IMG/VR virus record: IMGVR_UViG_2791354774_000003
Reading direction: 5' to 3' (one strand)
From: a virus
Taxonomy: Duplodnaviria; Caudoviricetes
Length of the DNA stretch: 64,000 nt
Shown here: positions 4,082 through 60,889 of the stretch, one piece after another
Position numbering within the stretch: position 1 is the stretch's first letter
How the letters are laid out: the number at the start of each line of letters is the position of its first letter
Notes under the pieces: generated by a model
Database searches by the model: none
What the model saw: the letters and a program-made list of their open reading frames with translations, nothing else
Told to the model about the DNA's origin: nothing
Made by a program: the position numbers and the translations under genes

Positions 4082-6352
4082 CTAGAAGCCCTCAACCGTC
4101 CAGTACGCCGCCAGGGTCACCCCAGAGGCGTTGCCGGCGACAACGACAGTGATTACCGTGCCCGTGACGCTGATGATCGAGAGCCCGACTGTGGCGCCGT
4201 TCGAGTTGCCCGGCGTCACCATGGCGACCGGCGTCTCGTGGAAGAACGGGAGGACGCCGCCGGACCGGCGCGGGAGCGGGATGGTAAACCGTCCCTGAGC
4301 GTCGGACGTGTACACGCCGACTCCCTTGAACCGATAGTAGCCGCTGTCGCTGACCGTCCCGCCTTTTGAAGCCGCATCGGCCTCGCTGATCTGGTACGGC
4401 TGATCGCCCGTGCCGGCGTAGACGACGACCGGCGGGTTGCCCCACCAATTCAACAGTTTCGTGCGACGCTCGACGATCGTGCCCGTCTTCGACCCACCCA
4501 TACGGAAGGCGCACGTTGCGGTGGCGTGGTCGGTGAGCAGCGAGCTTCCGGTGATCTCGCCCGCGAAGCAGGCCGTGTCCGTGTGGACGAGGACGTAGTT
4601 GGTACGCGTGCTCCCGTCCGAGGGGGCTCCGGCCGAGAACTGCATTCCGTCCAGCATGAAGTCGTTCACGTCGCGGAAGTTGACGTGCCGCAGCTCGCCC
4701 CCATCCGTCACGACGCCGGCCGGCAGCGGTCGGCCGGCGTTGTTGGCCGTCTGTATCCAGAACCCGCCACGCACGCGCACGCCCTTGCAGCGGTACATGT
4801 CGAGGGCGAACCCGAGGCCTTCCCAATCGCAGCCATTGAACTCCCAGAGGAGGGAGTAATAGAAGCCGGAGCGACTGTTGTTGACGCGACAGAAGCCCCA
4901 GCCGTTGTAGCCATGGCATCCAGAAAACAGCACGGCTTCGAGGGCTTGAGCGCAAGAACAGTCCCACGCCCACGTATAGTTGGCGACGATGACGTCCTTC
5001 CACGAGTAGGCGAACGAGCCGTAGGTGCAGGCATTGGTGACCTTGACCTCAATGCCGGCGCCAGCCTGCATCTGATTGTCGGGACCGAACACCTGAAGGT
5101 CGTAGATCGTCGCCCCGCGCGGCATATCTCCGAGCAGCCATCCGCGTGTACCGCGATCAAATCGAGCCTTCTGCACGGTGAGGCATTGGCCGCGTCCGAT
5201 CCCGCCCACACCGAAGAATGTCGTGAGCAGGGTCGTCGGAACGCTCGACGCACTGTCGAGATCGACGCCGCGCCATGTGAAGGGCCCCGACGCCTTCGCG
5301 GCCTCCGTGCCGTGATTCCAGCACCCCGACGAGGCTCCGACGCATTTGATCGTCGCGGGACCGGGGCTTGAGACGTGGCATGCCTTGGTTGCGGTGCTGT
5401 CGATCGGGAACGAGGTCAGCGCCGTGCAGCCGCGCGGGAGCACCGTGCAAGAGGCCATCCCGTTCCCGACGGCAATATCGATCCGACGCTGGATCGCGTG
5501 GCCGTCGATCTCCTCCGTCAGGGCGACCGCACGCGGGAATACGGCTTTCGCTGCCGCTAGGCCCGCCGAGCCCGTGCCGAATCGCTCGCTGAGCGGATGG
5601 CTCTGCCCGTCTCCAACGAAGCCGAGCGCGCGCAGCTCAGCGCCCTCAATCATCAGGTCGGCGAGCCAATCGAGGATCGTCTTGTTCGAGGACGGAAGGT
5701 TGTAGCCGGCCGCCGCTTGAAGGAACGCGGCGAGACCGAGCTTGCCCGACAGAGCGGGGTCCAGCGCGGCCGGCGTCACGAACTTGTCGGTCGCCTCGCC
5801 TTGATCCACGTCGGCGGACGATGCGGCCGAGGCGAACCCGCCCGGCACGACGAGCGCCGTACCCTCCTCGGCAACGACGCGCGCCTCCCCGAGGGCGACG
5901 ACGACCTGACCTGATGCCGTCGCGGTCGCCACAATCTGCCGCCAGCCAGAGGCGGGAGGGGTCGTGACGAGGGTGCCGTTGGCTCCGACGAAGAGTGTTG
6001 TCCCAGCCGTGAAGCCGCCGTCGGGGCCGAGCAAGTCCCCGGCATTCTGGATGGAGGCCGGCAATCCAACCGAAGCGCCCCGTGCCGTGATGCCGATGAT
6101 TCGGCCTCGGTGGGTAGGATCGGAGGGGGCCGCAGGAATGACCGAGCCGTCCGCATTGGCAACGAGAGCCCGCCAGGCCGGGATGCTCGCCGCAGCGGTG
6201 CGGGTAAAGATGACGCCCTGCCCCGGTGCGCCATCGCGGCCATCGGTGCCGTTCCGGCCATCCACGCCGTCAGTGCCGTCACGCCCTGGCGTGCCGATGC
6301 CCGGCACATAGATGGCGGACGGTGCGGGCACCGTGCTGTTTACGATAGCCAT
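4082..6352 (-). CDS. Tail fibre/tailspike: N-terminal collagen repeat, cement-like domain, beta-helix
   Basis: GRDGTDGVDGRNGTDGRDGAPG; LGFVGDGQSHPLSERF motif; H-lectin-like C-terminus. Confidence 0.75.
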   Translation of the reverse strand: MAIVNSTVPAPSAIYVPGIGTPGRDGTDGVDGRNGTDGRDGAPGQGVIFTRTAAASIPAWRALVANADGSVIPAAPSDPTHRGRIIGITARGASVGLPASIQNAGDLLGPDGGFTAGTTLFVGANGTLVTTPPASGWRQIVATATASGQVVVALGEARVVAEEGTALVVPGGFASAASSADVDQGEATDKFVTPAALDPALSGKLGLAAFLQAAAGYNLPSSNKTILDWLADLMIEGAELRALGFVGDGQSHPLSERFGTGSAGLAAAKAVFPRAVALTEEIDGHAIQRRIDIAVGNGMASCTVLPRGCTALTSFPIDSTATKACHVSSPGPATIKCVGASSGCWNHGTEAAKASGPFTWRGVDLDSASSVPTTLLTTFFGVGGIGRGQCLTVQKARFDRGTRGWLLGDMPRGATIYDLQVFGPDNQMQAGAGIEVKVTNACTYGSFAYSWKDVIVANYTWAWDCSCAQALEAVLFSGCHGYNGWGFCRVNNSRSGFYYSLLWEFNGCDWEGLGFALDMYRCKGVRVRGGFWIQTANNAGRPLPAGVVTDGGELRHVNFRDVNDFMLDGMQFSAGAPSDGSTRTNYVLVHTDTACFAGEITGSSLLTDHATATCAFRMGGSKTGTIVERRTKLLNWWGNPPVVVYAGTGDQPYQISEADAASKGGTVSDSGYYRFKGVGVYTSDAQGRFTIPLPRRSGGVLPFFHETPVAMVTPGNSNGATVGLSIISVTGTVITVVVAGNASGVTLAAYWTVEGF

Positions 6353-9573: not shown

Positions 9574-10760
9574 CAGCCGACGACCGTGACGTTCACGTCC
9601 TCAGCGGCGCACACCAAGCGCTCGTAGAAGGCCACCTCCAAGTCAGAGGGCTCGCCCGGCGCAAAGCCGTCGCGCGTCGCTACCATGCCATCCGGCACGA
9701 TCTCGAACGGCGCATTGATCGGCGACTCCTTCAGGTTCGCGGCGTCATAGGCGCGGCTGAGCGGGAGACGGTTGCCAATGCCGAGGGCGTTGACCCAAGC
9801 CGCTACAGCCTGCTGGATCGCAGCCTTGGTATCGGCGGTGTAGCCGCGAAACACCCGGATCGGGATGTAGAACGCGACCTTGACAGGCTTGGAGCGGAAG
9901 AACCCGACGTCGTGCGGGACGCCGTAATTGTCGGTCACGGGCACGATGACGTCGCCGTAGGTGCCGACACCGGGGGTCTTCTTCCGCGCGATGATGCCCG
10001 CGATGTCGTTGACGTCCCCGCCATCCACCACGGCCGCGATAGAGTGGGCCGGCACGCCATAGACGTCGATGATGTTGCTGTCGTTCTCGTAGACCCGGCT
10101 CGCCGCCACACCCGATACTGCCATCAGGGCACCGCGGAGGGAGTCAAGCGGGGTGTTCGCCGGCAGGCCTGTGGAGAGCGTCTGTCGCTGCCGAAGCTGG
10201 AGGTCCGTTTCAACAGGCAAGCCGGGCGAAGCCGGGCTCGGGTTCGTGACCGACTGCCATCCAAGCGTCGGAGTTGCGACGATGGTGACGGTATTGGTCG
10301 GCGCCTGGACGTCGCCCTTCACCTGACAGGTTGCTGTTACGGTGATCTGTCCGCTGTTCGGGATGACAACCGGATCAGGCAGGCTCCATGCCACGCCGCT
10401 GGCATCTCGGGCCACGCCATCGGAAATGACCGAACCGACTTGGCCGACAATGAGGAGATCGACGGTGGAGAATGTCGCCGACTTCCGGCGGATGCCGTTC
10501 AGCTTGACCACCGAAGACAGCCCCTCCCCCTGCGCGGTCGAGGGCGAGAAGGCGTTGAAGACGGAGACGGTCTCACCGTTGCAGTCGTGGATCGCGTTCG
10601 CCAGCAGGGCCATGAATTGGCCATCCTGGCTGTCCGCGCCGAGATACACGTCCTGCCCATAGATGCCGCGGTAGGCCGTCTGCACGTAGCCTAGGACGCT
10701 CTCGAACGTCGGCCGCACGATACCGGCCGCGGTGATCTGACAAGTTGGGGTGGTGCCCAT
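9573..10760 (-). CDS. Baseplate J/gp47 family protein
   Basis: ETDLQLRQRQ, VYENDS, PAHSIAAVVDGG motifs. Confidence 0.9.
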   Translation of the reverse strand: MGTTPTCQITAAGIVRPTFESVLGYVQTAYRGIYGQDVYLGADSQDGQFMALLANAIHDCNGETVSVFNAFSPSTAQGEGLSSVVKLNGIRRKSATFSTVDLLIVGQVGSVISDGVARDASGVAWSLPDPVVIPNSGQITVTATCQVKGDVQAPTNTVTIVATPTLGWQSVTNPSPASPGLPVETDLQLRQRQTLSTGLPANTPLDSLRGALMAVSGVAASRVYENDSNIIDVYGVPAHSIAAVVDGGDVNDIAGIIARKKTPGVGTYGDVIVPVTDNYGVPHDVGFFRSKPVKVAFYIPIRVFRGYTADTKAAIQQAVAAWVNALGIGNRLPLSRAYDAANLKESPINAPFEIVPDGMVATRDGFAPGEPSDLEVAFYERLVCAAEDVNVTVVG

Positions 10761-14053: not shown

Positions 14054-14063
14054 CGAAACCCGC

Positions 14064-14116
14064 GTATCACGAGGCGATACAAAATTGTTGACGTGGATGT
14101 ATCATCGTGCGATACA
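14064..14116 (+). promoter_or_regulatory. higBA promoter with two palindromic operators
   Basis: GTATC-N7-GATAC at 14064-14080 and 14099-14115 flanking TTGACG (14088-14093). Confidence 0.7.
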
Positions 14117-14142
14117 TGGGCCGTTCAGACGCGAGCTGCCAC

Positions 14143-14427
14143 GTGGCGATCCAGAGCTTTCACGACAGCCTGACCGAGACAGTGGCGCAAGGTCTGCGCC
14201 CGAAGGGTTTCCCGGCCGACCTGTTCAAGGCGACGCGGCGTAAGCTGGCAGCCTTGAACGCCGCTGAGACCCTGGAGGACCTTCGCTCGCCGCCCGGCAA
14301 TCGGCTTCACGCCTTGGAGCGCGACCGCGCCGGCCAGCACGCGATCCGCATCAATGATCAATTCCGTCTCTGCTTCGTCTGGACCGAAGCCGGGCCGGAG
14401 CGGGTCGAGTTCACCGACTATCACTGA
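14143..14427 (+). CDS. higB: HigB (RelE/ParE family) toxin
   Basis: LRSPPGNRLHALERDRAGQHAIRINDQFRLCFVW...DYH. Confidence 0.93.
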   Translation: MAIQSFHDSLTETVAQGLRPKGFPADLFKATRRKLAALNAAETLEDLRSPPGNRLHALERDRAGQHAIRINDQFRLCFVWTEAGPERVEFTDYH

Positions 14428-14465
14428 CCGCCCGTCACCACTCCGCCGCCACGGAGATCCGTCCG

Positions 14466-14816
14466 ATGACCGCTTATCCGCCCCTTGCCGAACTACGCGC
14501 CCTCGACCTCACTCAGATTGAGGAGATCACATCTCCCATCCACCCCGGCGAAATCCTCCGGGAGGAGTATCTCGTGCCGCTCAACCTGTCGGCCGGCGCC
14601 GTTGCTCGCGCCTGCGGCGTGCCGCGCACCCGCATCGAGCGGATCGCAACGGAGGAGACCGGGATTTCGACCGACACGGCGCTGCGGCTCGGGCGTTACT
14701 TCGGCACCACCCCCGCGTTCTGGCTCAACCTTCAGCGCAAGTACGAAATCGACGTCTTGGACCGCGAGATCGGGGCAGAGATCGCTGCGATCAGACCGTT
14801 GGAGACGGCTGCATGA
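14466..14816 (+). CDS. higA: HigA antitoxin (XRE HTH)
   Basis: PIHPGEILREEYL...ALRLGRYFGTTPAFWLNLQ. Confidence 0.93.
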   Translation: MTAYPPLAELRALDLTQIEEITSPIHPGEILREEYLVPLNLSAGAVARACGVPRTRIERIATEETGISTDTALRLGRYFGTTPAFWLNLQRKYEIDVLDREIGAEIAAIRPLETAA

Positions 14817-15058
14817 GTGTTGGCACCGTCACTTTGGATCAGGCGCCACCGCGCGATCTCGACGTGGTGCGCCTGCTGTCAGATGCCGTAGGAGACGAAG
14901 GCGAGCGCATACCGTCTGGGTCTGAAGGTACGGTCGTGCATGTCGTCAATCTGGGTGACACCTACGTGGTCGAATTCGATGTCCCAGCTTTAGGTACGCT
15001 TGCAACGGTAGGCGCTCAAGCCCTAGCGGTCGTGTGGCTGGTATCGTCCATTAAGTGA
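14813..15058 (+). CDS. DUF4926-like SH3-fold protein
   Basis: LDVVRLL...IPSGSEGTVVHV...YVVEF. Confidence 0.7.
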   Translation: MSVGTVTLDQAPPRDLDVVRLLSDAVGDEGERIPSGSEGTVVHVVNLGDTYVVEFDVPALGTLATVGAQALAVVWLVSSIK

Positions 15059-15060
15059 GT

Positions 15061-15114
15061 GACGAGGGCGGCACCTCTCGGCTGGGGCGCGCTGATACAT
15101 CGGCCGCCCTCGCC
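15061..15114 (-). ncRNA. TIGR-like stem-loop guide unit 6
   Basis: GGCGAGGGCGG CCG ATGTATCAG CG CGCC CCA GCCGAGAGG TG CCGCCCTCGTC. Confidence 0.8.
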
Positions 15115-15138
15115 TCACCGCCGAGGCGGTGTCTGCGA

Positions 15139-16119
15139 TTAGTGGGTGAGAGCGGCGCCTGCCATTTGGGTGCCGTCCATCAGATGGCCACCCTCACCCT
15201 TCCTCCATTGGGACCAGAGGTCCCGGAGAAATCGCTTCTCGACGTAGCGCTGCGCCCGATTGTGCGCGTGCGCCTTGGTCTCGACCCGTTCGGCCTCGTA
15301 GACCTTCCGTGCGTCGTAAATTACCTTGAGCGGCCCGCCAGCCTTCACGATGCAGGCACCGAGGTTCCACATCACCGAGCGCCGAGCCGGGCTGTACCCG
15401 TGGTCAAGCGCCTCGACACCACCGACACGCCGCTGCCGGCCGCCATCAGGCATCACGGCCAGCCCCATGCGCTTCCATAGTTTGGCGGGATTGCCGTAGG
15501 AGCCGAGATCCCCAGCCTCGCCGACGATGGCCGCCAGAGACAGCAAGCCGACGCCGCGTGTGGCCTCAACCCACGGCGCGACGGGTAGCCCCTTCGCCAA
15601 GGCCACTAGCCGCTTCTCAACAGCCCTGCGGTGGCGCTCGACACCATCTCGGGCTTCGGTCAGAGGAAACATTGCAGCCAGGGCAACCTCACCCATGGGA
15701 TGAGAGCCTTTGCCGATGGCGGCACCGTAGATCTTGTCCGCTTCCTTTTTGTCGCCGCCCTCAGCGAGGCGACGGCACAGGGCCTTTGCCTGCAAGGTCA
15801 ACGACTTCTCGGCGCGGTGCCACGCCTGCCGGCGCCGCCATTGTTCACGGACCTCTGCAATAAGGTCGGCGAGGTCGGCAGGGGGTAGTTGGATAACGCG
15901 TCTGCCATGGCCGGCCTCGCCTTCGCCGGCCTCACGGTCGGCGATCTCGGTATCATGGGCGACGAGGCTGGCAGTGGTTGTATGGGTGCCACGAAGGCAC
16001 TGGCCAGCCTCGTCATCGGCGTTACCGCCGATTGGGTAAAGGGGTGCGGTGGGCGACGCATCGTGATGGGGTGGCAGATGTTCAACGGTCGCCCGACCGC
16101 GCCGGGACGTGCCCGGCAT
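15139..16119 (-). CDS. TasA-like Nop / IS110-C-terminal-domain RNA-binding protein with no RuvC or HNH nuclease
   Basis: Coiled coil followed by RGVGLLSLAAIVGEAGDLGSYGNPAKLWKRMGLAV; no DEDD domain; the only nearby in-frame ATG with an RBS is at 16119; flanked and overlapped by guide-like units. Confidence 0.8.
   Translation of the reverse strand: MPGTSRRGRATVEHLPPHHDASPTAPLYPIGGNADDEAGQCLRGTHTTTASLVAHDTEIADREAGEGEAGHGRRVIQLPPADLADLIAEVREQWRRRQAWHRAEKSLTLQAKALCRRLAEGGDKKEADKIYGAAIGKGSHPMGEVALAAMFPLTEARDGVERHRRAVEKRLVALAKGLPVAPWVEATRGVGLLSLAAIVGEAGDLGSYGNPAKLWKRMGLAVMPDGGRQRRVGGVEALDHGYSPARRSVMWNLGACIVKAGGPLKVIYDARKVYEAERVETKAHAHNRAQRYVEKRFLRDLWSQWRKGEGGHLMDGTQMAGAALTH
15144..15199 (-). ncRNA. 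TIGR-like stem-loop guide unit 5 (inside the 3' end of the TasA-like ORF)
   Basis: GGGTGAGGGTGG CCA TCTGATGGA CG GCAC CCA AATGGCAGG CG CCGCTCTCACCC. Confidence 0.8.
15868..15921 (-). ncRNA. TIGR-like stem-loop guide unit 4
   Basis: GGCGAGGCCGG CCA TGGCAGACG CG TTAT CCA ACTACCCCC TG CCGACCTCGCC. Confidence 0.8.
15961..16014 (-). ncRNA. TIGR-like stem-loop guide unit 3
   Basis: GACGAGGCTGG CCA GTGCCTTCG TG GCAC CCA TACAACCAC TG CCAGCCTCGTC (perfect 11-bp stem). Confidence 0.85.
16046..16100 (-). ncRNA. TIGR-like stem-loop guide unit 2
   Basis: GCGGTCGGGCGA CCG TTGAACATC TG CCAC CCC ATCACGATG CG TCGCCCACCGC. Confidence 0.75.
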
Positions 16120-16126
16120 CTCTGAA

Positions 16127-16651
16127 TTACTCCGCGAGGCCACGTGCCGCCTCCTGCAATTCGCGCAGGCGCCGATCGGTGAGCACATCGCCAGCCGTCT
16201 TGTCGCCCGGCACAGACTGAGCCACGAGGCGCAGCCAGCGCGCCTTGACCCCCATATCCGTTGCCTGCGCATCGTAGAACTGCGCGGCCTCTGCAATCTC
16301 CTCTCGGGTCGCCTCACCGAGCTTCTTGCCGCCGGGGAGCGGGAACATGAGGAGCGTGCCAGCCGCGAGTTGCACCACGCGGTGCGAACCGTTCGTGCGG
16401 TTGGCGACCAGCTTCTCGGCCGGCGGGGTCCACACCTTCCGGCGCTCGACGCGGCACTGTGCGGTCACGGCGGCGTAGCAAGCGGTCGAGAGAAGTGGGT
16501 CGGTCAGATCGTCTCGCAGACGACGGTTGTTGCGCACGGACTGCTCCAGGGCGCGGGTCGCCTCACGCACATCGCCGTTCGCGGCTTCCAAAGCGGCACG
16601 AGCCGCCTCGGCAACGAGATCTCTTTCCTTGGGCTTTGCTGAAGCGGCCAT
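16127..16651 (-). CDS. Hypothetical helical protein (174 aa), candidate Tas partner
   Basis: GGAG RBS plus ATG (MAASAKPKERDL...); lies between guide units 1 and 2, directly upstream of the TasA-like gene. Confidence 0.75.
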   Translation of the reverse strand: MAASAKPKERDLVAEAARAALEAANGDVREATRALEQSVRNNRRLRDDLTDPLLSTACYAAVTAQCRVERRKVWTPPAEKLVANRTNGSHRVVQLAAGTLLMFPLPGGKKLGEATREEIAEAAQFYDAQATDMGVKARWLRLVAQSVPGDKTAGDVLTDRRLRELQEAARGLAE

Positions 16652-16782
16652 GTCGGGTCTCCACGGGCGCCGGCCCGCCAGGGCCTGAAGCGCGTACAGG
16701 TGGTCGGAAGCGACCGCCGGCACCCGTGAAGTCGGGGAACTCGGGATCGCGCTTGATACCGCCCTGGCGGGGCGGGATAGGT

Positions 16783-16836
16783 GCAGACGACGACAGAACG
16801 GTATTGGGCGGCACTGCCGATACGGTCGTCGTCCGC
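16783..16836 (-). ncRNA. TIGR-like stem-loop guide unit 1
   Basis: GCGGACGACGA CCG TATCGGCAG TG CCGC CCA ATACCGTTC TG TCGTCGTCTGC. Confidence 0.8.
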
Positions 16837-16860
16837 TTCCGTCTTCCGACGGATCTGCGA

Positions 16861-17262
16861 TTAGGATTGGCGCCAGTCGTAGCCGACAGCACTCAGAACG
16901 AGCGCCGCTCGGGTCGTTGGGCAGGCTGCGCGGCAAAAATAATCAACCGCGTCGCTGCCCTTGGGCACCCACTGCAAGTACGGCAACTCGCGGGTGTCTT
17001 GAGCGCAGGCCTCCGGAAACCCCGCCGGCATCGTCACCCCCTCTCGGGATAGAGAAGCAGCGCGCGCAACCGCTTTTCGATAGGAGTGCTGCGCCAGGAT
17101 CTCGCGATGCTTATGAACGATGAAACCGAGATAGGCATCGAACAGTCGGTCAGTGACGGGCTCGGCAACAGCCGTTGGCGAGCCGATGAGAGTGACGCCA
17201 CCTCCGATCAAAGGCAGTGTCGTGAGGCCGCGAAGGAAACCGCGCCGGGAGTGGTTGGACAT
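16861..17262 (-). CDS. Hypothetical protein with a twin-arginine-like N-terminus
   Basis: MSNHSRRGFLRGL; GAGG RBS. Confidence 0.65.
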   Translation of the reverse strand: MSNHSRRGFLRGLTTLPLIGGGVTLIGSPTAVAEPVTDRLFDAYLGFIVHKHREILAQHSYRKAVARAASLSREGVTMPAGFPEACAQDTRELPYLQWVPKGSDAVDYFCRAACPTTRAALVLSAVGYDWRQS

Positions 17263-17274
17263 TGCCCCCTCCCC

Positions 17275-17574
17275 TCAGTTCGCGGTCTTGGCGCGAGCGG
17301 TGCGCGCCGTCTGCCACGCAGCTTTGAGCGCCACCGACATGGCCTCGCCCCAGCTATCGCCGAAACGATCCTGATGCGCCTTCGCGGCGAGAACGGCTGC
17401 CTTCATGATTGCGGCGCGGTCGAACTGACCGTTCACGACCAGCGGACGGCGCTGGAACTTGACAAAAACCTCAACCCGACCGCGAGCGCCGAGGAAGCCG
17501 GCGGGTACCTGTTGGCGGTCGGCGCGGAGGCCGGTGAGAGCGGAGGACCAAGAGAGTTGGCGGCGGGAAGACAT
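17275..17574 (-). CDS. Hypothetical protein, first gene of the TIGR/Tas operon
   Basis: ORF just downstream of the TTGACA promoter; N-terminus resembles the 49367 ORF. Confidence 0.65.
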   Translation of the reverse strand: MSSRRQLSWSSALTGLRADRQQVPAGFLGARGRVEVFVKFQRRPLVVNGQFDRAAIMKAAVLAAKAHQDRFGDSWGEAMSVALKAAWQTARTARAKTAN

Positions 17575-17592
17575 GGACGTTGGCCCCATTTC

Positions 17593-17659
17593 TGTGCTAC
17601 CAGCACAATATGAGGCGCCGTAAAGGTGCTGTCAACACAAAAATGGTGCCATTAGCACA
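17593..17659. promoter_or_regulatory. Divergent promoter region with three 15-bp operators
   Basis: TGTGCTACCAGCACA (17593), GGTGCTGTCAACACA (17625), GGTGCCATTAGCACA (17645); minus-strand TTGACA-N17-CATATT at 17635-17607. Confidence 0.75.
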
Positions 17660-17925
17660 TGACTGAGACCGATGGGCGAACGGTGGTTCTCACCGTTGAG
17701 CAAATCCGGATGGCTAAGGCCGCCCTCGGCTGGTCAAATCCTATGATGGCTGAGATGACCGGCCTCCATCGAAACACCCTCAACCGAGCCGAGAACGGAG
17801 AGGCGAAGAGATCAACCCTTGAGCTTTTACGACGGGTGTTCGAGCAAGCCGGTCTAGAATTCATTCCCGCTAATGGCGGCGGCCCTGGCGTGAGGCTTCG
17901 GGAGAACGCCGAGAGCGCGAACTGA
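17659..17925 (+). CDS. XRE-family HTH repressor
   Basis: LTVEQIRMAKAALGWS...TLNRAENG...FEQAGLEFI..NGGGPGVRL. Confidence 0.9.
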   Translation: MTETDGRTVVLTVEQIRMAKAALGWSNPMMAEMTGLHRNTLNRAENGEAKRSTLELLRRVFEQAGLEFIPANGGGPGVRLRENAESAN

Positions 17926-17926
17926 C

Positions 17927-18163
17927 GTGCCGCGCAACGTCGAGCCGTTTTCCTTCTGGCGCTGGCTTGTCCGCAGCCTGTGGCTTTTCGTCATTCGCAG
18001 CGGTGCGGTCTTTGGCGCCCTGAGTACCTATCTCACCGTGTTCGGCGTCGAAGACGCCTACACCGACGTGATCAAGGACTACCGCTGGGAACTCGCGATT
18101 GGGCTCGTCCTCGCCCTTATCGTGAACCTGATGTACGATTGGGAGTGGAGCAAGGAGCCGTAG
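17927..18163 (+). CDS. Small two-TM membrane protein (moron)
   Basis: Two hydrophobic segments; coupled to the repressor gene. Confidence 0.55.
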   Translation: MPRNVEPFSFWRWLVRSLWLFVIRSGAVFGALSTYLTVFGVEDAYTDVIKDYRWELAIGLVLALIVNLMYDWEWSKEP

Positions 18164-18736
18164 ATGCCGACGCCCGTCCTTGTCGCCTTGGCGGTTTTAA
18201 TCGCCTACCCGTTGATCCAGATCGTTGCGATCCGCCTACGCCGCGCTGATCGCTTGGCTTTTCGCGCCCTGATTGACGAGATGAAGGCCGACCCTGCCTA
18301 TCAGGGGAAGCCAGAACAGGACGCGCTCAACCAGATCGACGACGACGCCTATGGCTCGCCGGTTGTTGCGCTCACGCCGATCATCCTTCCAATCATGGTG
18401 ATCGCCGACATTCTGGCTCCTCGGCTCGAAGAGGATGCGATCCCGAGCCCCGATAGGCCCCGCTCTATCGTCTACGCATTTGGGACGCTACGCCACGTGC
18501 CTGCATCGTCCCCCCTTTGGGATGATGACAGACTGCCCGTCGCACTTAGGCTGTCGGTCAAGCTCTGCTTTGAAACGTGGCCCGTTTCCACGTTCCTCGC
18601 AGCCGTTCTAGCTGCGCCGTTCGCAGCCCTTGAAGCCATCCTTCGTTGGGTTCGCACGAACACACTAGAGCACCTGAGCGCGTACAAGGTCGGGCTGCGA
18701 CTGTGGCACGTCTTCGGCGCGTTTGGGGCGCGCTAA
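18164..18736 (+). CDS. Membrane protein (moron)
   Basis: Several hydrophobic segments; ATG abuts the upstream stop. Confidence 0.6.
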   Translation: MPTPVLVALAVLIAYPLIQIVAIRLRRADRLAFRALIDEMKADPAYQGKPEQDALNQIDDDAYGSPVVALTPIILPIMVIADILAPRLEEDAIPSPDRPRSIVYAFGTLRHVPASSPLWDDDRLPVALRLSVKLCFETWPVSTFLAAVLAAPFAALEAILRWVRTNTLEHLSAYKVGLRLWHVFGAFGAR

Positions 18737-18745
18737 TCAGCCAGC

Positions 18746-19273
18746 CTACGGTGTCATCACGCCGGCCGTGACGCCTGCCATAACCGTGCCCGCGAGCAAG
18801 CTTCCCCAGGCTGTCCACACCGCCATGCGCGTCAGCTTCGCGCTCCGGTGGAGGACGGCCTGATTGCGGCCTATGCACCGGGAGCTGTCGGCCAGAGCCT
18901 CTGCCTTTGAAGTGGCGAGCGGCTTGGCATCCTTTACGTCGTCAACCCACCCCTCGGGATCATTGCCGACGTAGGAAAAGGCATCCGGCATCGCCGCCCG
19001 GTTTGCGAGGAACATAGCCCCTAACAGGCCAGCGACAGTGAGTAGGCCAGCCCATGCGAATGGAGCAGCAGGTGCATTCGTGGCCAGCGCCGCGATGCTG
19101 GCGCTGCCGATCACGGCCGAGGCGGCGGCCAAAAAGCCGAAGAAGGTCATTGCCCGCTGATTGCCCGCCAAGGCCACCGTCAACTGCGCGCTAAGATAAG
19201 CGTCGGCATCTCGCTTGATTAACTCCAGCGTGTCATCGTCCGCACGCGAAAGGCTCTCGGCGATGTCAGACAT
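18746..19273 (-). CDS. Three-TM membrane protein, Pycsar-effector-like topology
   Basis: Helix, two TMs, soluble linker, C-terminal TM. Confidence 0.5.
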   Translation of the reverse strand: MSDIAESLSRADDDTLELIKRDADAYLSAQLTVALAGNQRAMTFFGFLAAASAVIGSASIAALATNAPAAPFAWAGLLTVAGLLGAMFLANRAAMPDAFSYVGNDPEGWVDDVKDAKPLATSKAEALADSSRCIGRNQAVLHRSAKLTRMAVWTAWGSLLAGTVMAGVTAGVMTP

Positions 19274-19429
19274 GCAGCACCACGATTATCACATGCAGCC
19301 GAAGGACCGGCCAACCGGCACAAAAGGGCCTGACGGGAGCACGCGCAAGCCTCACATCATCACGGGCGACACAAAGCCAGCACCGAGGCCGTCGCCGAAA
19401 CCATCTGGCGGCGGCAAGAAATGAAGGGC

Positions 19430-23828: not shown

Positions 23829-25325
23829 TTAGCGGTTGGCGACGACGCTGATGATGACCGCGTGCACAGCGCCCGCGAGCTTCACGGCGACCTGAAATGG
23901 TACGGTCTTGCGAGCAGCGCGGTCGGCCTCCGACTGCGTGGCAATCGGCGGAGCGTAGACGAAAAACCCGTTCTCAAGCACATCGCCCGTGTTGAGCGAG
24001 CCGATCTTCGGGCCGGTCCAGACGCCGGGAGCGAGCATCCCATTGCTGACCGCCTGATAACACCGGCTCTTGATGACAGCTTTCACCATCTCCATGCCGG
24101 CGTCTGTTTGCGGAACTTTCGTCGGGTTCGTGTAGAGCAGGTTGTAGACGGCCGTCTGCATCGTGTTCTGGAGCCAGTCGAGGTTGTGGACCTCGTCGAA
24201 GTAGTAGCCGTTCGCCATCACGCCGTTCTGAAGGATGGCGGTGTCGTTGTTGTAGTTGACGAACACGTTGCCGTTCTTGGCCTTCAGGGTAGCCGCTTGG
24301 CTTTCGGCGATCGTCTCAGCGATGACGCCCGGCTCTTTTTTGAACATGAGCGTGATCGTCGTGTCCGCGCCGTCGAAATCGACGGTGGCGGCGCGGCCGA
24401 AGAACGAAGCGTGCGCGAAGGGATTGGTCGCGGAGTACTGCCAGAACGTCCGCTTAAACCCAGAGTCCTTCAACTGACTGCCGAGGTCCGCGCTCGTGGT
24501 TGGATCAAGCACGTTCGCGTTCTGAATGGTGATGCCGAACAGATGGCTCTGACCAAGCCCCTCAACTACGGCGGCAGTGGCGAGATAGGTCGCGTCATCG
24601 GGCGGCGTGTTGACCGCGAGCAGGTAGGTGTAGTCGCGACTATCGAGGTCCGCGAACAGGCTGATGCAGGCCGGCAGCGTCTCGGGCTCGACGCCGATTA
24701 CGGGCGCAGAGGCGTCGGCCGCAGTCAGGTGCAGCAGGCCGGAAACGTCGGTGCCGGTCGTGTGGCTCGTGGCGTAGGACACCGACGAGGCCGCGCCGGT
24801 CGTGCCGGACTGAACGGTGAAGCGCCCAAGAACGCTGTCCCACTTCACGGTGGCTCCGGTCGAGACGGCAGCGAGAGCGTCCTGCACGATCTGAGCGACG
24901 CCGTTGAGGTTGAGCGCGCCGGAGAAGTTCAGGGCGGTCAGCGTGCGCTCAACGCCATCGACGCTGACCTTCATCGAGCCGTTGGTGACGGCGGTGAAGT
25001 TGGAAAGCGCCCGCTGCGTCGGGCTGAGCGTGGCACCGCGCAGGAGGCCAGCCGTCGCCGTCTGAGCCCATCGACCGACATAGACGATCTCGGGCTGCGG
25101 CTCCTGGCTGAAGTACAGCGTCGCGGCCTTAGCCTCGGGGCTATCGACGCCGAAGTCGGTCGCGATGGCTTCCGCCGAGGTGTAGAGGCGCTTGCGCTCT
25201 GTGACGTCGATGACGTTCGACGAGCCGACGATGATGCCGGTGCCGAAATTCCGCTCCTGAGCCGCGATCGGCTGGAGGGTAACGGAAACGCGAACGACGC
25301 CGGAGACGTCCAATCCCTTGGCCAT
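23829..25325 (-). CDS. Tail sheath protein (DUF3383-like)
   Basis: TLMFKKEPGV, YFDEVHNLDWL, KVPQTDAG, KLAGAVH motifs. Confidence 0.92.
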   Translation of the reverse strand: MAKGLDVSGVVRVSVTLQPIAAQERNFGTGIIVGSSNVIDVTERKRLYTSAEAIATDFGVDSPEAKAATLYFSQEPQPEIVYVGRWAQTATAGLLRGATLSPTQRALSNFTAVTNGSMKVSVDGVERTLTALNFSGALNLNGVAQIVQDALAAVSTGATVKWDSVLGRFTVQSGTTGAASSVSYATSHTTGTDVSGLLHLTAADASAPVIGVEPETLPACISLFADLDSRDYTYLLAVNTPPDDATYLATAAVVEGLGQSHLFGITIQNANVLDPTTSADLGSQLKDSGFKRTFWQYSATNPFAHASFFGRAATVDFDGADTTITLMFKKEPGVIAETIAESQAATLKAKNGNVFVNYNNDTAILQNGVMANGYYFDEVHNLDWLQNTMQTAVYNLLYTNPTKVPQTDAGMEMVKAVIKSRCYQAVSNGMLAPGVWTGPKIGSLNTGDVLENGFFVYAPPIATQSEADRAARKTVPFQVAVKLAGAVHAVIISVVANR

Positions 25326-25327
25326 GT

Positions 25328-25966
25328 TCAGACTTTCGGCGTCTTGAGTGGTTGCTGGTTAGTGACGGCGCCGTCCTGGCTCCCGCCCCTCCCGATGAGG
25401 GTGCCGTCGAGTTCGAGCACGTTTCGGACAGCGTAGGTGCGCTCGACACGGCGGCGGAGACGGAAGCCGATGTCCGTGCGACGGCGCGGGCTGGTGTTGA
25501 TGATCTCGGGGACGTGCCGACCGGCCCCGACGTCGATCAATCCCATGCCAACCCGAAACAGCGCTTCCCTGTTCTGGGCGACGTAGAGGCCAGACCGGAG
25601 CAGTTCCGCGAGAGCCGAGCTGCGCAGGCCATAGAAACTCGCCAGCACATCAAGCGTCAGATGTTGGACCTGTGTGGAAGTCCCCTCACCTGTCCCGTCG
25701 TGGATCATGGCGGGTTGCCCATCAGCCTCCATCGACATGACGCCGACAGCCGCCCAGTTGTCCCTTTGGTTCGGGTTGCGAGGCGTGGCCCTCTCGTCAT
25801 CGCCCAGCGTCACATATCGAGGGCGGACATTCTCGCCCTTGAGACCTGTTAGGCCCACCACCAGCGACTGCATGAAGAGGTCAAGGTCGAGGTCATCATC
25901 TGGGGCCGACGTCAGCGGACCGAGGAAGCCGCCGCTCGCGCTCGTGTTAGGTGAGGTAGCCGGCAT
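25328..25966 (-). CDS. Neck/tail terminator protein
   Basis: PNTSASGGFL N-terminus; VVGLTGL..ENVRPR; gene position. Confidence 0.75.
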   Translation of the reverse strand: MPATSPNTSASGGFLGPLTSAPDDDLDLDLFMQSLVVGLTGLKGENVRPRYVTLGDDERATPRNPNQRDNWAAVGVMSMEADGQPAMIHDGTGEGTSTQVQHLTLDVLASFYGLRSSALAELLRSGLYVAQNREALFRVGMGLIDVGAGRHVPEIINTSPRRRTDIGFRLRRRVERTYAVRNVLELDGTLIGRGGSQDGAVTNQQPLKTPKV

Positions 25967-44779: not shown

Positions 44780-45168
44780 TTCGCGCCCTGATCCACCAGC
44801 GGAGCCACCAGGGCAGCGGCTTCCTTGCCGTGCGATGAGCGACCCCCTGTCGGGCCATCCAGAGATCGATCCGCCTCGTAAGCCATCGCATCGTCGCCCT
44901 CTCCGAGCGCGCGAAAACGCGCCCACTCCAACTCGGCTTGAGCCTCCAACCGGTCGCACTCGGCGCGGTAGGCGGCGTGAATGTTGAGGAAGGTGTCGGC
45001 GTCGAGCCGGATCGGCTGACGGCCGAGGAACTTGCGCACCCATGAAGCGGTCGCGCCGATCTTCCGGCCAACGTCGTCGTAGGCGTTCATCCGCGAGCCG
45101 CTGCGGCGCTCTGCGAGATCAACGAGAGCACCGACGCGAGGGAACGCGAGATCGGCAGCGGTCGTCAT
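44776..45168 (-). CDS. Hypothetical DNA-binding protein (CII-like position)
   Basis: HTH-like VGRKIGATASWVRKFLGR. Confidence 0.55.
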   Translation of the reverse strand: MTTAADLAFPRVGALVDLAERRSGSRMNAYDDVGRKIGATASWVRKFLGRQPIRLDADTFLNIHAAYRAECDRLEAQAELEWARFRALGEGDDAMAYEADRSLDGPTGGRSSHGKEAAALVAPLVDQGAK

Positions 45169-55729: not shown

Positions 55730-56114
55730 GCGCCGCACAGCGAAGGCCCGCCTCCGCATTTTCCTCGCGCATGATGGCATCTGCCACATCTGCAAGGGCA
55801 AGATTGGCATCGGCGAAGCGTGGGACCTGGACCACATCACGCCGATCGCAATGGGCGGCGAGGACGAGGAAGCCAACCTCGCCCCCGCACACCGAAAGAC
55901 ATGTCACGGCGCGAAGACTGCTCAGCAGGACGTGTCGATGATCGCCAAGGCGAAGCGCCGCGAGGTTCTTCACTTGGGCGCCAAGCCTGCGCCGAAGCAG
56001 CGATTGCAAGGCCGCGGCTTCGACAAGGCCCCGCCGCAGCGCCGGGCCTCCACTCCCCTCACCAAACCGCCCGTTCCCCGCAACCGTCCCTTCTACGGAG
56101 ACGCCCAGTCATGA
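55722..56114 (+). CDS. HNH endonuclease
   Basis: CHIC...DLDHITPIAMGG...NLAPAH..CH..KT. Confidence 0.88.
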   Translation: MRKRRTAKARLRIFLAHDGICHICKGKIGIGEAWDLDHITPIAMGGEDEEANLAPAHRKTCHGAKTAQQDVSMIAKAKRREVLHLGAKPAPKQRLQGRGFDKAPPQRRASTPLTKPPVPRNRPFYGDAQS

Positions 56115-58235: not shown

Positions 58236-59735
58236 ATGTCCACCACCACCCACCAGGGCGCGGTAGGCGCTGAGACGATGACGGCGGGGCAGGTTGCCCA
58301 TGACGCGGCTTACGGTCTGTCGCCGGATAGCCGCCTCTGGCAGGCCCAGACTGAGAATGTGCGCGATTTTTGGCGCCGTGCGGCTGCGGCCGTCGTTGCC
58401 CTCGCTACACCCGCTCCCCGCACGGACGGCGGGATGACGGCGGGGGAGGATGCGAACTTCGGCGATGCACCTCATGATTTGGTGAGCGAGATCGCGACGC
58501 AGGTTCTGAACCTGCCCTGGACCCGGTTTGGCTTGACCGACCCTCGCAGCGGGCACTTCGATCATGATGCGCTCGCCGACCGGCACGGTGATGTGCAGAT
58601 CATTGCCGAAAAAGCGCTGCGAGACGCCCGAGCCTCTGACGCGGAAAGCGCGTGGCCATTTGAGCGGACGCGCGCCTACCTGCTCGCCGAGCTTGAACGG
58701 CTTCGCGCTGATCTGCACACGATCGGCGAGGATCTGACAGGCGAGCAGGGGAAGGCCGCGTCTTGGCTCGACGTTGCGACCGGGCGCGCGGCGAACGTGT
58801 CGTCCGTCCTCGCTTCAGCCGCCCCCGCCCAGCCGGCAGGGGCCGTGCCGGATGGCCTGCGGGCGCTGAGCGAGGCGGCGACGCAGGGCGAGTGGTACAC
58901 CGAGAGTGAGAAGTGCGACGGGTCTTATGGCTCGGGTGAGGACTGTGGCGAGGGGTATCTCGCTTACAGCATCTTGACAGACGCCGAGCCCCGCTACGGC
59001 AACCCTGGCGTGATCGCGGAGACGAGCAACAGCACGCTCGGCGTGATCCATGAGGAGTCGGACGAGGACGGCTTCACGGCTTGGGACGAGACGGCGCGGA
59101 CGAACACCGCCTTCATCGTCGCCGCCGTCAACTTCGTCCGTACCCTCCTCGCCTCCCATCCGGCCGGGCAGAGCGCCGGGTCGGAGGCGGGCACCGACGC
59201 ACTCGTGGATCGGTTCGCGCTGGCCCTCAAGGCGAAGTTGCGGGCAGCCGAGGCAAAGTACGGCTGGCAGAGCGGTTGGCTCAAGACCAATTGGCAGGCG
59301 GAGTGCCAGCAGGGTCTTGTGCGCCACGTCGGCAAGGGCGATCCGCTCGACGTGGCCGCCTATGCCGCGTTCTGCTGGTACCACGGCTGGCCCACCACAT
59401 CGCGACGCTCGACCGAACTCGTCACCGGCGCCGTGATCCCGACCGCCGGGGCCATTGCAGCTTACGCGGCTCGCTATCCGGACGGCTCTCTCCAGGAGAG
59501 CAGCGACAACGCCATCGAGTGCTGGAACCGAGTCGCCGTCGCTGCCTGTCTCGCCGAGATGCCCGCCCCCGACAGCACCCGTACGGGGGACGAGGGGACG
59601 GATTGGGTTCTGGTGCCCGCCAAGCCGACCGAGGAGATGATTGCGGCGGGCTGGATCGACAAGGAAGACGTAGACCCCGACGATATCTACCGCGCCATGA
59701 TCGCCGCCCGCCCGGCAGCCCCGGAGGCGCAGTGA
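58236..59735 (+). CDS. Mosaic early protein (Ea22/Ead-like and other modules)
   Basis: LRALSEAATQGEW...NTAFIVAA; HVGKGDPLDVAAYAAF; PTEEMIAAG...YRAMIAA. Confidence 0.65.
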   Translation: MSTTTHQGAVGAETMTAGQVAHDAAYGLSPDSRLWQAQTENVRDFWRRAAAAVVALATPAPRTDGGMTAGEDANFGDAPHDLVSEIATQVLNLPWTRFGLTDPRSGHFDHDALADRHGDVQIIAEKALRDARASDAESAWPFERTRAYLLAELERLRADLHTIGEDLTGEQGKAASWLDVATGRAANVSSVLASAAPAQPAGAVPDGLRALSEAATQGEWYTESEKCDGSYGSGEDCGEGYLAYSILTDAEPRYGNPGVIAETSNSTLGVIHEESDEDGFTAWDETARTNTAFIVAAVNFVRTLLASHPAGQSAGSEAGTDALVDRFALALKAKLRAAEAKYGWQSGWLKTNWQAECQQGLVRHVGKGDPLDVAAYAAFCWYHGWPTTSRRSTELVTGAVIPTAGAIAAYAARYPDGSLQESSDNAIECWNRVAVAACLAEMPAPDSTRTGDEGTDWVLVPAKPTEEMIAAGWIDKEDVDPDDIYRAMIAARPAAPEAQ

Positions 59736-59846
59736 TGCCCCGCGCGGCTTCGCCCTTGACTGCCCGGCGCTCGTCGGCGGGTGGGCTTTCATACGATCGA
59801 CGGACACGCCTGAGCGCTCAGGCGCTCTTCATTGGAGGGCGCTGAG

Positions 59847-60786: not shown

Positions 60787-60889
60787 TGCCCCGCGCGGCT
60801 TCGCCCTTGACTGCCCGGCGCTCGTCGGCGGGTGGGCTTTCATACGATCGACGGACGGCTGCGATCGCCCTTCACATGTGGAGGCGGCG

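Follow-up and report, generated by a model that had tools for sequence, protein, structure and literature searches.

We identified, in a myovirus-like prophage, a locus that is almost certainly a TIGR-TasA system and whose guides match DNA sites in related prophages. The anatomy of the locus, the family of its protein (by sequence and by fold) and a conserved unit architecture with variable spacers could be read directly, as could the sequence matches in rival prophages and, for the carrier, the mismatches at its corresponding sites. The best explanation of the whole, which we consider likely, is a stem-loop TIGR array with a TasA protein that silences the late genes of rivals. The features discussed below are collected in Table 1; 'the window' refers to the whole stretch of 64,000 nt that was analysed.

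The TasA protein, its guide units and their surroundings

Table 1. Coordinates of the locus and of the carrier's counterparts of the guide targets (window positions; scores from the covariance model)
Feature	Position	Strand	Remarks	Score (bits)
tasA, 326-aa Tas protein without nuclease	15139..16119	-		
Conserved 174-aa gene of unknown fold	16127..16651	-	adjoins tasA on its upstream side	
tigRNA unit 1 (guide 1)	16783..16836	-	alone, upstream of the 174-aa gene	40.7
tigRNA unit 2 (guide 2)	16046..16100	-	within 5' part of the tasA frame	36.6
tigRNA unit 3 (guide 3)	15961..16014	-	within 5' part of the tasA frame	50.6
tigRNA unit 4 (guide 4)	15868..15921	-	within 5' part of the tasA frame	46.6
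tigRNA unit 5 (guide 5)	15144..15199	-	within the last tasA codons	44.5
tigRNA unit 6 (guide 6)	15061..15114	-	directly past the tasA stop codon	49.4
6-bp leader hairpin	16838..16853	-	abuts the 5' side of unit 1	
Similar leader hairpins	~16101-16117, 16016-16031, 15923-15944, 15116-15131	-	next to other units	
Promoter-like TTGACA-17-CATATT	17607..17635	-	before small genes preceding unit 1; consensus match only	
TIGR-tasA island, ~5.4 kb, in the tail module	14060..19420	.	absent from related provirus G001	
Own ortholog of guide 6 target (sheath stop/RBS/start junction)	25324..25340	-	2 substitutions and a 1-nt deletion	
Own ortholog of guide 2 target, inside sheath gene	24340..24356	-	2 substitutions (ITLMFK for ITMMFK)	
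Own ortholog of candidate guide 4 target (wedge gene codons 3-8)	10738..10754	-	6 mismatches	

A phmmer search against PDB sequences aligned TasA with TaTasR (9MTY; E = 1.2e-11) across the Nop domain; the aromatic residue Y238 of TaTasR is retained as a tryptophan in TasA and a HAHNRA motif is common to both. The NCBIfam TIGR-Tas model NF052498 scored 91.7 bits (E = 6e-26), below its cut-off of 100. In an AlphaFold model with pLDDT above 90 in 197 of 326 residues, residues 1-80 and 309-326 were disordered and the core consisted of a coiled coil and the Nop domain. The ten best Foldseek matches in the PDB were all TasR or TasH chains (E 5e-7 to 2e-4), followed by IS621 and then by Nop56/58, Prp31 and Nop5, in line with the Nop-type fold that an earlier note on this DNA had predicted. 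Pfam and PADLOC returned no family for TasA and Pfam no HNH or RuvC match, and the fold matches cover the Nop part. The core is conserved, with 48 columns invariant across 61 homologues, and an alternative start codon (GTG, 16143) is preceded by AGGAGG. Protein and guides together agree with that note's description of a TIGR-Tas system with a nuclease-less TasA and dual 9-nt guides bounded by CCA/UG.

Six units of 54-56 nt each were recovered on the minus strand, which is also the tas strand, within 1.8 kb beside and inside tasA, with the coordinates and spacer pairs given by the earlier note. In each of them a variable stem of 11-12 bp closes the core CC(A/G)-N9-(U/C)G-N4-CC(A/C)-N9-(U/C)G, a layout of box C, 9 nt, box D, 4 nt, box C, 9 nt and box D in which UG-N4-CCA spans 9 nt, the inter-spacer loop length reported for TIGR. 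What had been called an identical 32-nt core is a fixed 32-nt pattern with an 11-12-bp closure, its sequence not being identical among units, and what had been called dispersed units are in fact grouped as three sub-arrays (1 + 3 + 2 units) with a period of 85-93 nt within each.

The bare core pattern is common in this DNA of 64-69% G+C. Over both strands of the window it gave 18 matches, six of them the units and one, at 15621-15652, a seventh match within the locus that has no stem. Adding a tolerant stem rule left eight matches in the window, namely the six units, 55998-56028 and 58400-58431. With an unbroken stem of at least 8 the 5.94-Mb genome gave 23 matches, four units and 19 scattered singles, units 2 and 4 being missed because each has one stem irregularity. 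Unlike the bare pattern, pattern plus stem is specific. A covariance model whose training set included the six window units, run on the 64 kb with filters off, scored these units at E values of 1e-4 to 2e-7, and the next match besides the units' own reverse strands reached 17.7 bits (E 0.39). On folding, the closing stem formed in every unit (z = -2.5 to -6.9).

Units on the tas strand were detected in each of the 18 related tas loci, in 15 of them by pattern and in the remaining three by covariance model, and across loci there are 49 distinct units with different spacers. It is the boxes and their spacing that the related loci keep, not the 9-mers, which speaks for the earlier note's reading. 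Among these 49 units of the locus and its relatives, chosen by a rule that requires a stem, which qualifies the figures for pairing and covariation, 83.5% of 686 stem cells were paired, compared with 65.3% after shuffling and 37-54% with a slid partner column, and changes on both sides were seen in 12 of 14 pairs. Each spacer pair thus appears to be closed by a hairpin of variable palindromic flanks, which take the place of conserved edge repeats. The third box C base is A in 41 of the 49 units at each box, without being demanded by the pattern. Phage records of about 700 kb contained three off-locus pattern matches; one of the three, in record L002 (2418-2473; 43.6 bits by covariance model), may represent a genuine unit on the opposite strand.

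The 24 nt upstream of five of the six window units fold at -9.2 to -13.2 kcal/mol, and upstream 24-mers at or below -4 kcal/mol were found for 43 of 49 units, compared with 153 of 300 random 24-mers. According to Xu et al. [quoted passage not shown] The 3' flank of the units is C-rich and G-poor.

The 174-aa gene lies directly upstream of tas in all 16 related loci that include the upstream flank and may encode a new accessory factor of the system. The 124 homologues of its protein all lack both a name and a Pfam family; Pfam and PADLOC gave the protein itself no family, Foldseek no PDB match at E <= 0.001, and the protein atlas returned only unnamed, mostly viral clusters with scores up to 0.88. 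Wide VIA-align matches (Z <= 4.8) were discarded as meaningless for a helical protein. The locus shares its strand with the late genes of the prophage, and the positions that flank the island, 14050 and 19424, map to 44944 and 44923 of G001, a closely related provirus on a contig of another species in the same genus. No recognisable recombinase or nuclease was found in the island. Two promoter-like sites were found with 1.0 expected. The host genome is complete and of isolate type, with 69% G+C, and the named relatives of the protein are from Alphaproteobacteria. None of the sequencing runs listed for this DNA is recorded as RNA, and four runs gave only short contigs of low depth from related strains, which are uninformative about transcription.

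Guide matches in related prophages and the carrier's own sites

Targets were searched as spacer B followed by the reverse complement of spacer A (on the other strand, A joined to the reverse complement of B), a geometry that we inferred from the published 8-nt 3' overhangs and that is not a stated rule. This target form, which the earlier note had also put forward, yielded matches in related prophages and none in the host genome at up to one mismatch; the reversed geometry (reverse complement of A joined to B) yielded no full or near-full match, and shuffled spacers yielded 0-2. In all, there was one 18/18 match, and matches of 9 + 9 with a 1-bp overlap at three sites (in G001, L038 and G403).

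Guide 6 matches G001 at 18/18 positions across the stop/RBS/start junction of the tail-sheath gene. This provirus holds the sole close relative of the window's sheath protein in the viral collection (94% amino acid identity) and has no guide unit and no TIGR system. Exact guide 6 18-mers were found twice among 2.9 million viral contigs, once in L020, which lies on G001, and once in an unrelated contig (L021), where the match is probably due to chance; single 18-mer matches therefore carry little weight alone. Guide 2 matches G001 as well, within the sheath gene and 970 nt beyond the guide 6 site, at 9/9 + 9/9 with a 1-bp overlap. In L038, a more distantly related sheath gene, it matches the orthologous site in the same way. 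By our estimate, two such matches in one 58-kb record have a chance expectation of about 6e-5. The 17/18-nt pattern of guide 2 was found at 17 viral loci, only L020 and L038 being sheath homologues; the other 15, unrelated and mostly of low G+C, were set aside. Guide 1 has a 9/9 + 9/9 match with a 1-bp overlap in one of 146 genomes of the genus (G403, a third species), in a prophage that has DNA patches in common with both the window and G001; the site is upstream of the packaging genes and adjoins the terminase genes. With this query, a TasA homologue was absent from G403 and from G391, the genome that contains G001.

For guide 3 there was no match in the viral contigs or in 126 genus genomes of completeness at least 99. 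The guide 4 candidate, in codons 3-8 of the G001 baseplate wedge gene, reaches only 15/17, which is chance level, and the pattern occurred in one unrelated viral contig and in none of 146 genus genomes. Guide 5 gave four unrelated viral contigs of low G+C and nothing in 78 genus genomes of completeness 100. In a family-level search guide 6 had a one-mismatch match in one of 301 genomes and its backwards control had five, so that this match is attributed to chance. Named phage genomes contained only pieces of the sheath gene at 60-80% identity, in phages of Burkholderia, Bordetella, Klebsiella and others; a close relative was not among them.

In two of the three full matches the site would have to be 17 bp long, with its central base pair shared by both spacers. 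Spacers A and B end in complementary bases in 23 of the 49 units (14.6 expected), and sites of 17 bp with such a shared pair may be natural to this clade. We found no published test of this geometry for any Tas protein in the available literature.

At the carrier's own guide 6 site, the deletion lies opposite the middle of spacer A, and three of the 16 differences along 198 nt fall inside the 18-bp site where 1.5 are expected, a clustering that is suggestive only. The two substitutions at the own guide 2 site, counted beyond the 1-bp overlap, do not exceed the background divergence, which is 13% locally. For the guide 1 site the carrier yielded no counterpart. With all six guides and offsets from -1 to +1, the carrier's own genome contained no site at up to one mismatch and four two-mismatch sites, about the chance expectation. 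Window sites within three edits (guides 1, 4 and 5) were rejected as chance level, at 0.2 per shuffled 18-mer.

Proposed mechanism and alternative explanations

In the mechanism that we propose, a minus-strand transcript would carry, in this order, the hairpin with guide 1, the 174-aa gene, guides 2-4, the tasA core and guides 5 and 6, guides 2-4 sitting in the part that codes for the disordered N-terminus of TasA. Stem-loops of 54-56 nt would be freed from the transcript, a TasA dimer would bind each of them through the two CCA/UG box pairs, and the two 9-nt spacers would pair with opposite strands in adjacent halves of the DNA site. Since TasA has no nuclease, the bound protein would be expected to block transcription there. 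The sites would be those in rival prophages of the same genus, at the sheath start junction, in the sheath interior and in the region upstream of the packaging genes, and the likely effect would be that the competitor's late genes are silenced while the carrier is spared, since its own sites are absent or carry mismatches. We infer here the transcription and processing of the guides, their binding by this TasA, and repression with its outcome for either phage. A silencing role between phages is in our view probable, and the role against competing elements that the earlier note had suggested fits the targets found in related prophages.

It could be argued that the carrier regulates itself, with partly matching guides dampening its sheath and late genes for the sake of lysogeny stability or tail timing, and that relatives show perfect matches only because the sites descend from a common ancestor. 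The two best targets are indeed in genes shared with the carrier, at orthologous positions, the locus lies within the tail module and on the strand of the late genes, and a repressor needs binding only, in which TasA may tolerate mismatches. We nevertheless regard such self-regulation as improbable, given the three differences, deletion included, at the carrier's guide 6 site and the two substitutions at its guide 2 site, the missing counterpart for guide 1, the lack of any own-genome site at up to one mismatch and the report that the full R-loop of TasH is stopped by a single mismatch at spacer position 5 (PMC13421893). Even less credence is due to regulation of host chromosomal genes, since the same six guides and offsets gave no host site at up to one mismatch and the four sites at two mismatches are about what chance provides, even if such silencing is listed as a possible role by Xu et al. 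(bioRxiv 10.64898/2026.09.09.750476).

A role in DNA transactions, in which bending or unwinding by TasA promotes recombination, gene conversion or spread of the island among phages, would suit the mosaic nature of these phages with their patchy DNA identity, the presence of the island in one phage and its absence from a close relative, and a 174-aa partner without known function; Faure et al. (PMC12045711) speculated that TasA might aid integrases by bending DNA. We give this role a slim chance. The empty island site in G001 (44923-44944) is matched by no guide, matches within three edits being found in G001 only at 35403, 39470, 39479, 40455 and 48207, the island is without a recognisable recombinase or nuclease, and the TasA proteins tested so far are described as reversible repressors (bioRxiv 10.64898/2026.09.09.750476). 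It is also very unlikely that the array is a decaying or idle relic that has lost its RNA-guided activity and whose matches are due to chance or left from a past conflict. The TasA core is strongly conserved (the 48 invariant columns in 61 homologues), boxes and stems are intact in all six units, and the two full G001 matches, at about 6e-5 by chance, fall in the sole close sheath relative of the collection; on the other side, three of six guides lack a convincing target and 18-mers do match by chance in big collections, as with L021 and the 16 unrelated hits for the guide 2 17/18-mer.

Relation to known systems and significance

The earlier note had presented the locus as a dispersed stem-loop variant that repeat finders would miss, but such systems are already published, together with a dedicated finder. 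A paper of 2025 (PMC12045711) described stem-loop TIGR arrays divided into sub-arrays. Guides upstream, downstream and inside the tas frame followed in 2026 (bioRxiv 10.64898/2026.09.09.750476), in a study that reports 2,559 stem-loop arrays from its finder as well as DNA binding and transcriptional repression by TasA with stem-loop guides. The locus is therefore not a new variant, and it or its relatives may be listed in Table S1 of PMC12045711 or in the supplement of bioRxiv 10.64898/2026.09.09.750476. What our sequence comparisons add are candidate natural targets of a TIGR system; in the available literature we found no report of natural TIGR targets.

The stem-loop systems with which we compared the locus are PlTasA (PMC12045711; Guan et al., bioRxiv 10.64898/2026.08.11.744272), BlTasA and MbTasA (bioRxiv 10.64898/2026.09.09.750476). 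Like these, it is phage-carried and encodes a single protein of coiled coil and Nop domain whose N-terminus is disordered. Also in common are guides that are closed by a hairpin and have two 9-nt spacers, CCA/UG boxes and a 9-nt inter-spacer loop, and sub-arrays upstream, inside and downstream of the gene with stems that vary within the array. It differs from them in its complete host genome of 69% G+C with protein relatives in Alphaproteobacteria, the conserved 174-aa gene between guides, the leader hairpin before most units and the CUU motif, which is not evident, and also in that candidate natural targets can be named, which going by the published accounts is impossible for most published systems. 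With the dual-repeat proteins TaTasR (PDB 9MTY) and SpTasH (PDB 9W04) it shares the Nop-domain fold, these being the best PDB matches, and, as predicted here, tandem spacers that target opposite strands, whereas it has no RuvC or HNH domain, and its guides have variable palindromic stems instead of conserved edge repeats and measure 54-56 nt instead of 36 nt.

The IS110/IS621 bridge-RNA recombinases have a related C-terminal RNA-binding domain, IS621 being the next fold match after Tas, but the present system has no DEDD/RuvC catalytic domain and no transposon ends, and uses several small guides rather than one two-loop bridge RNA. Some databases label TasA homologues 'IS110 family transposase'. 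Virus-borne CRISPR mini-arrays target related viruses. Type IV and V-M CRISPR are cited as non-cleaving or virus-borne systems in conflicts between mobile elements (PMC12045711), and both kinds resemble the proposed system in that a mobile element directs short guides at its close relatives, with an interference that need not involve cutting. Here, in contrast, the protein family is unrelated, the guides carry two spacers that read both DNA strands, and the system lacks a PAM and any known adaptation machinery.

It is about an even chance that these are the first natural TIGR targets in the literature that can be named, and that TasA is a weapon that silences the tail and packaging operons of sibling phages at gene-start junctions. 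In the TIGR papers, as far as their available text goes (PMC12045711; bioRxiv 10.64898/2026.09.09.750476), the natural targets and the role of TasA are the main open questions, and they are open because most loci lie on metagenome fragments. Here the system is in a complete genome and a near-isogenic provirus without it is found in a sister species, so that the purpose of TasA reduces to an experiment on defined DNA sites, in which guide, target and the carrier's escaped sites can be compared side by side. Furthermore, the tolerance for half-site spacing (17 versus 18 bp) matters for the programming of Tas proteins.

Guide units and their relatives

A minus-strand reading of 14800-17100, with the intervals extracted, confirmed the six units and all of the spacer pairs described in the earlier note. 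In each unit an 11-12 bp stem encloses CC[AG]-N9-[TC]G-N4-CC[AC]-N9-[TC]G, and this closing stem forms in the folds of all six (z = -2.5 to -6.9). The bare 32-nt pattern is commonplace in this G+C-rich DNA, with 18 matches on both strands of the window, six of them the units; pattern plus stem is rare, with eight cases under a tolerant stem rule, again including the six. In the 5.94-Mb host genome, pattern plus an unbroken stem of at least 8 occurs 23 times, four of these being units and the other 19 singly scattered. A covariance model trained on 49 units, the six window units among them, scored those six at 36.6-50.6 bits; leaving aside the reverse strands of the units, no other stretch of the window scored above 17.7 bits.

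Two solitary pattern-plus-stem matches in the host genome, C1:5192113-5192144 (+) and C1:3398042-3398073 (-), have 12- and 13-bp stems and non-CCA boxes, and are probably due to chance. A 32-nt string present twice in the window, about 1 kb apart and without a closing stem, is probably a gene segment repeat unrelated to the array. Contigs from public runs differ at low depth by G>A at window 15080 (unit 6 spacer B) and C>T at 15088 (4-nt loop), and close relatives may carry a guide 6 variant.

The units are not truly dispersed, as had been proposed, but fall into sub-arrays (1 + 3 + 2) with a period of 85-93 nt inside the groups. Published descriptions of stem-loop TIGR arrays report variable palindromic flanks, CCA (box C) and UG (box D) motifs, 8-12-nt spacers and a mostly 9-nt loop (PMC12045711; bioRxiv 10.64898/2026.09.09.750476; bioRxiv 10.64898/2026.08.11.744272), and the division of TIGR arrays into sub-arrays has also been described (Faure et al. 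2025, PMC12045711). Units 5' of, 3' of and within the tas frame, in disordered regions, have been reported together with a dedicated finder and the 2,559 stem-loop arrays it annotated (Xu et al. 2026, bioRxiv 10.64898/2026.09.09.750476). The window locus likewise has sub-arrays, in-frame units in disordered parts and CCA/UG boxes; thus each of its architectural features was already known, the claim of a new stem-loop variant falls away, and the locus belongs to the known stem-loop TIGR-TasA kind.

A protein search with TasA listed 764 homologues, the named ones being a hypothetical protein, transposase or IS110 family transposase of Methylobacterium, Bosea, Beijerinckiaceae and others. Few genomes of the host genus have TasA (2 of 146 species genomes). 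Of the 18 related loci that we compared, 13 come from viral contigs and the other 5 from genomes, and three pairs are duplicates. The pattern detector picked up tas-strand units in 15, and the covariance model found variant-length units in the remaining three, which were outside its training set. Across 49 distinct units, boxes and spacing are constant and spacers differ, so that the test put forward in the earlier note, conservation of motifs and spacing versus that of the 9-mers, came out in favour of the former; the stems covary.

The sole candidate unit on the opposite strand among these loci, L002 2418-2473 (-), scores 43.6 bits (E = 8e-6) and lies about 1.5 kb upstream of tas. Spacers of the 49 units have 53.6% G+C, compared with mostly 62-70% in the phage records carrying them, and the 3' flanks are C-rich with nearly no G for 8 nt. 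At another locus, L012, the adjoining units 4852-4907 and 4932-4987 have a nearly identical spacer pair, which suggests that one unit was recently duplicated and then diverged, and may indicate how arrays grow.

The tasA gene and its island

The open frame 15139-16317 overlaps the gene upstream, and the in-frame tasA starts are a GTG at 16143, preceded by AGGAGG, and an ATG at 16119. As the frame has no ATG, GTG or TTG from 16119 to 15801, and conservation in a 61-protein alignment starts at residue 82, ahead of codon 15801, the N-terminal 80 codons with units 2-4 must belong to the frame. Unit 5 lies over the last tasA codons and unit 6 after the stop codon. The same alignment shows strong conservation throughout the core (residues 82-306), and great variation in sequence and length in the two terminal tails, the very parts in which the units lie. 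One homologue of 79% identity, P0005, has the same C-terminal tail as the window's protein, and hence guide 5 in common with it, and a different N-terminal guide-coding part.

Pfam gave no family for TasA, and its sole real match among PDB sequences was 9MTY chain A (E = 1.2e-11, query 161-309), which is TaTasR (Faure et al. 2025, PMC12045711). In the AlphaFold model the core is confident and residues 1-80 and 313-326 are disordered; the best ten Foldseek hits in the PDB were TasR and TasH chains, followed by IS621 and then by Nop56/58, Prp31 and Nop5. The NCBIfam TIGR-Tas model NF052498 gave 91.7 bits, below its curated cut-off of 100. A nuclease domain is absent, and the prediction of a nuclease-less, Nop-like TasA-type protein is borne out. 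Repression by TasA has been described as RNA-guided and reversible (Xu et al. 2026, bioRxiv 10.64898/2026.09.09.750476).

Judged from its genes, the carrier is a myovirus-like prophage, with PHROG matches to terminase, portal, protease, major head protein, sheath, tape measure, baseplate hub and wedge, and fibres. The TIGR-tasA locus sits in the tail module on the late-gene strand, and comparison with a related provirus showed a 5.4-kb island that is absent from the latter. Directly upstream of tasA lies a 174-aa gene, and this gene has the same place in all 16 related loci having an upstream flank; its protein has 124 homologues, none named, and structure searches found no recognisable fold. 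On the same island, an HTH_3 gene and a small DUF4926-like gene, overlapping by 4 bases, point at the tas operon and stop 3 bases from unit 6; they may be a regulator or a toxin-antitoxin-like pair.

Features of the locus and its surroundings in the window
Feature	Position	Strand	Remark
Island	~14060-19420
HTH_3 gene	14466-14816	+	helix-turn-helix
DUF4926-like gene	14813-15058	+	small
Unit 6	15061-15114	-
Unit 5	15144-15199	-
tasA	15139-16119	-	326 aa
Stemless pattern match	15621-15652		inside gene; bare 32-nt pattern search
Unit 4	15868-15921	-
Unit 3	15961-16014	-
Unit 2	16046-16100	-
174-aa gene	16127-16651	-	directly upstream of tasA
Unit 1	16783-16836	-
Repeated 32-nt string	59772-59803; 60823-60854	-

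Guide matches in related prophages

TasR cuts within both heteroduplexes and leaves 8-nt 3' overhangs (Faure et al. 2025, PMC12045711). Since such overhangs arise only if, on either strand, the spacer is paired to the 3' half of the site, we infer that one strand of the target reads spacer B and then the reverse complement of spacer A. Both this arrangement and the reversed one were tried in all target searches, and in all full matches the coding strand of the downstream genes reads B then rc(A). As the two spacers pair with different strands, a 1-bp overlap in the target site would be physically possible for TasA guides. Spacers A and B end in mutually complementary bases in 23 of 49 units versus 14.6 +/- 3.0 in shuffles, at a nominal P of 0.005 that is uncorrected, is the top of 81 cells and concerns a hypothesis drawn from four of the same units.

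The guide 6 18-mer has two exact matches among viral contigs. One is in G001, a 58-kb provirus from another species of the same genus and the only close relative of the window sheath protein in the collection (sheath 94% identical, gene upstream 86%), where the site covers the upstream gene's stop codon, the ribosome-binding site GAGAGG and the AT of the sheath start codon ATG. The corresponding junction in the window has two substitutions and lacks one base, with flanks otherwise identical. The other match, L021 2838-2855, starts at the ATG of a 193-aa gene preceded by AAGGAG on an unrelated viral contig of 57.5% G+C, and is probably a chance match. Both guide 2 spacers are exact in the G001 sheath gene, 970 nt beyond the guide 6 site, the 9-mers sharing one bp; this 17-mer recurs at the orthologous position of a more distant sheath gene (L038, 50-56% aa identity), and the window's own site has two substitutions. 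Guide 1 matches exactly with both spacers, again with a 1-bp overlap, in one of 146 genus genomes, in a prophage region that has patches of DNA in common with the window and with G001. The site precedes a 109-aa gene by about 70 nt and the small terminase gene by about 650 nt; no counterpart was found in the window or G001. For guide 4 there is only a 15/17 candidate in codons 3-8 of the G001 baseplate wedge gene, of a kind that arises by chance in controls (six mismatches at the window's own site), and searches for targets of guides 3 and 5 found none.

Could the full matches, too, be fortuitous? The reversed geometry gave no matches in 249 kb and shuffled spacers 0-2 at two mismatches or fewer; when 50 guides were searched across 680 kb of phage records with at most one mismatch allowed, the real geometry gave five, the reversed none and re-paired spacers 0-2. 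By our estimate, chance would place two full matches of the six guides in a single 58-kb record ~6e-5 times. The host genome has no site for the guides at one mismatch or fewer. Neither the genome carrying G001 (G391) nor the one with the guide 1 match (G403) has a TasA homologue detectable with the window TasA as query, and no guide unit was found in G001.

A guide at the 3' end of another phage's tasA (L004 4936-4991 = G417 16472-16503) matches, in the correct geometry, a conserved site that codes for LWKRMGL in other phages' tasA genes, with one mismatch in L011, 2-3 in eleven other loci including the window and more than three in its own tasA. It may be aimed at rival tasA genes, or the match may be chance (estimated p ~0.02-0.1).

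Proposed role of the island

The putative targets would account for only half of the six guides. The simplest account of these sequence matches would be that the island arms the prophage against sibling phages: guide-loaded TasA would occupy the start and the body of the rival's sheath gene and the region ahead of its packaging genes and so block late transcription, and the carrier would be spared because its own sites differ.
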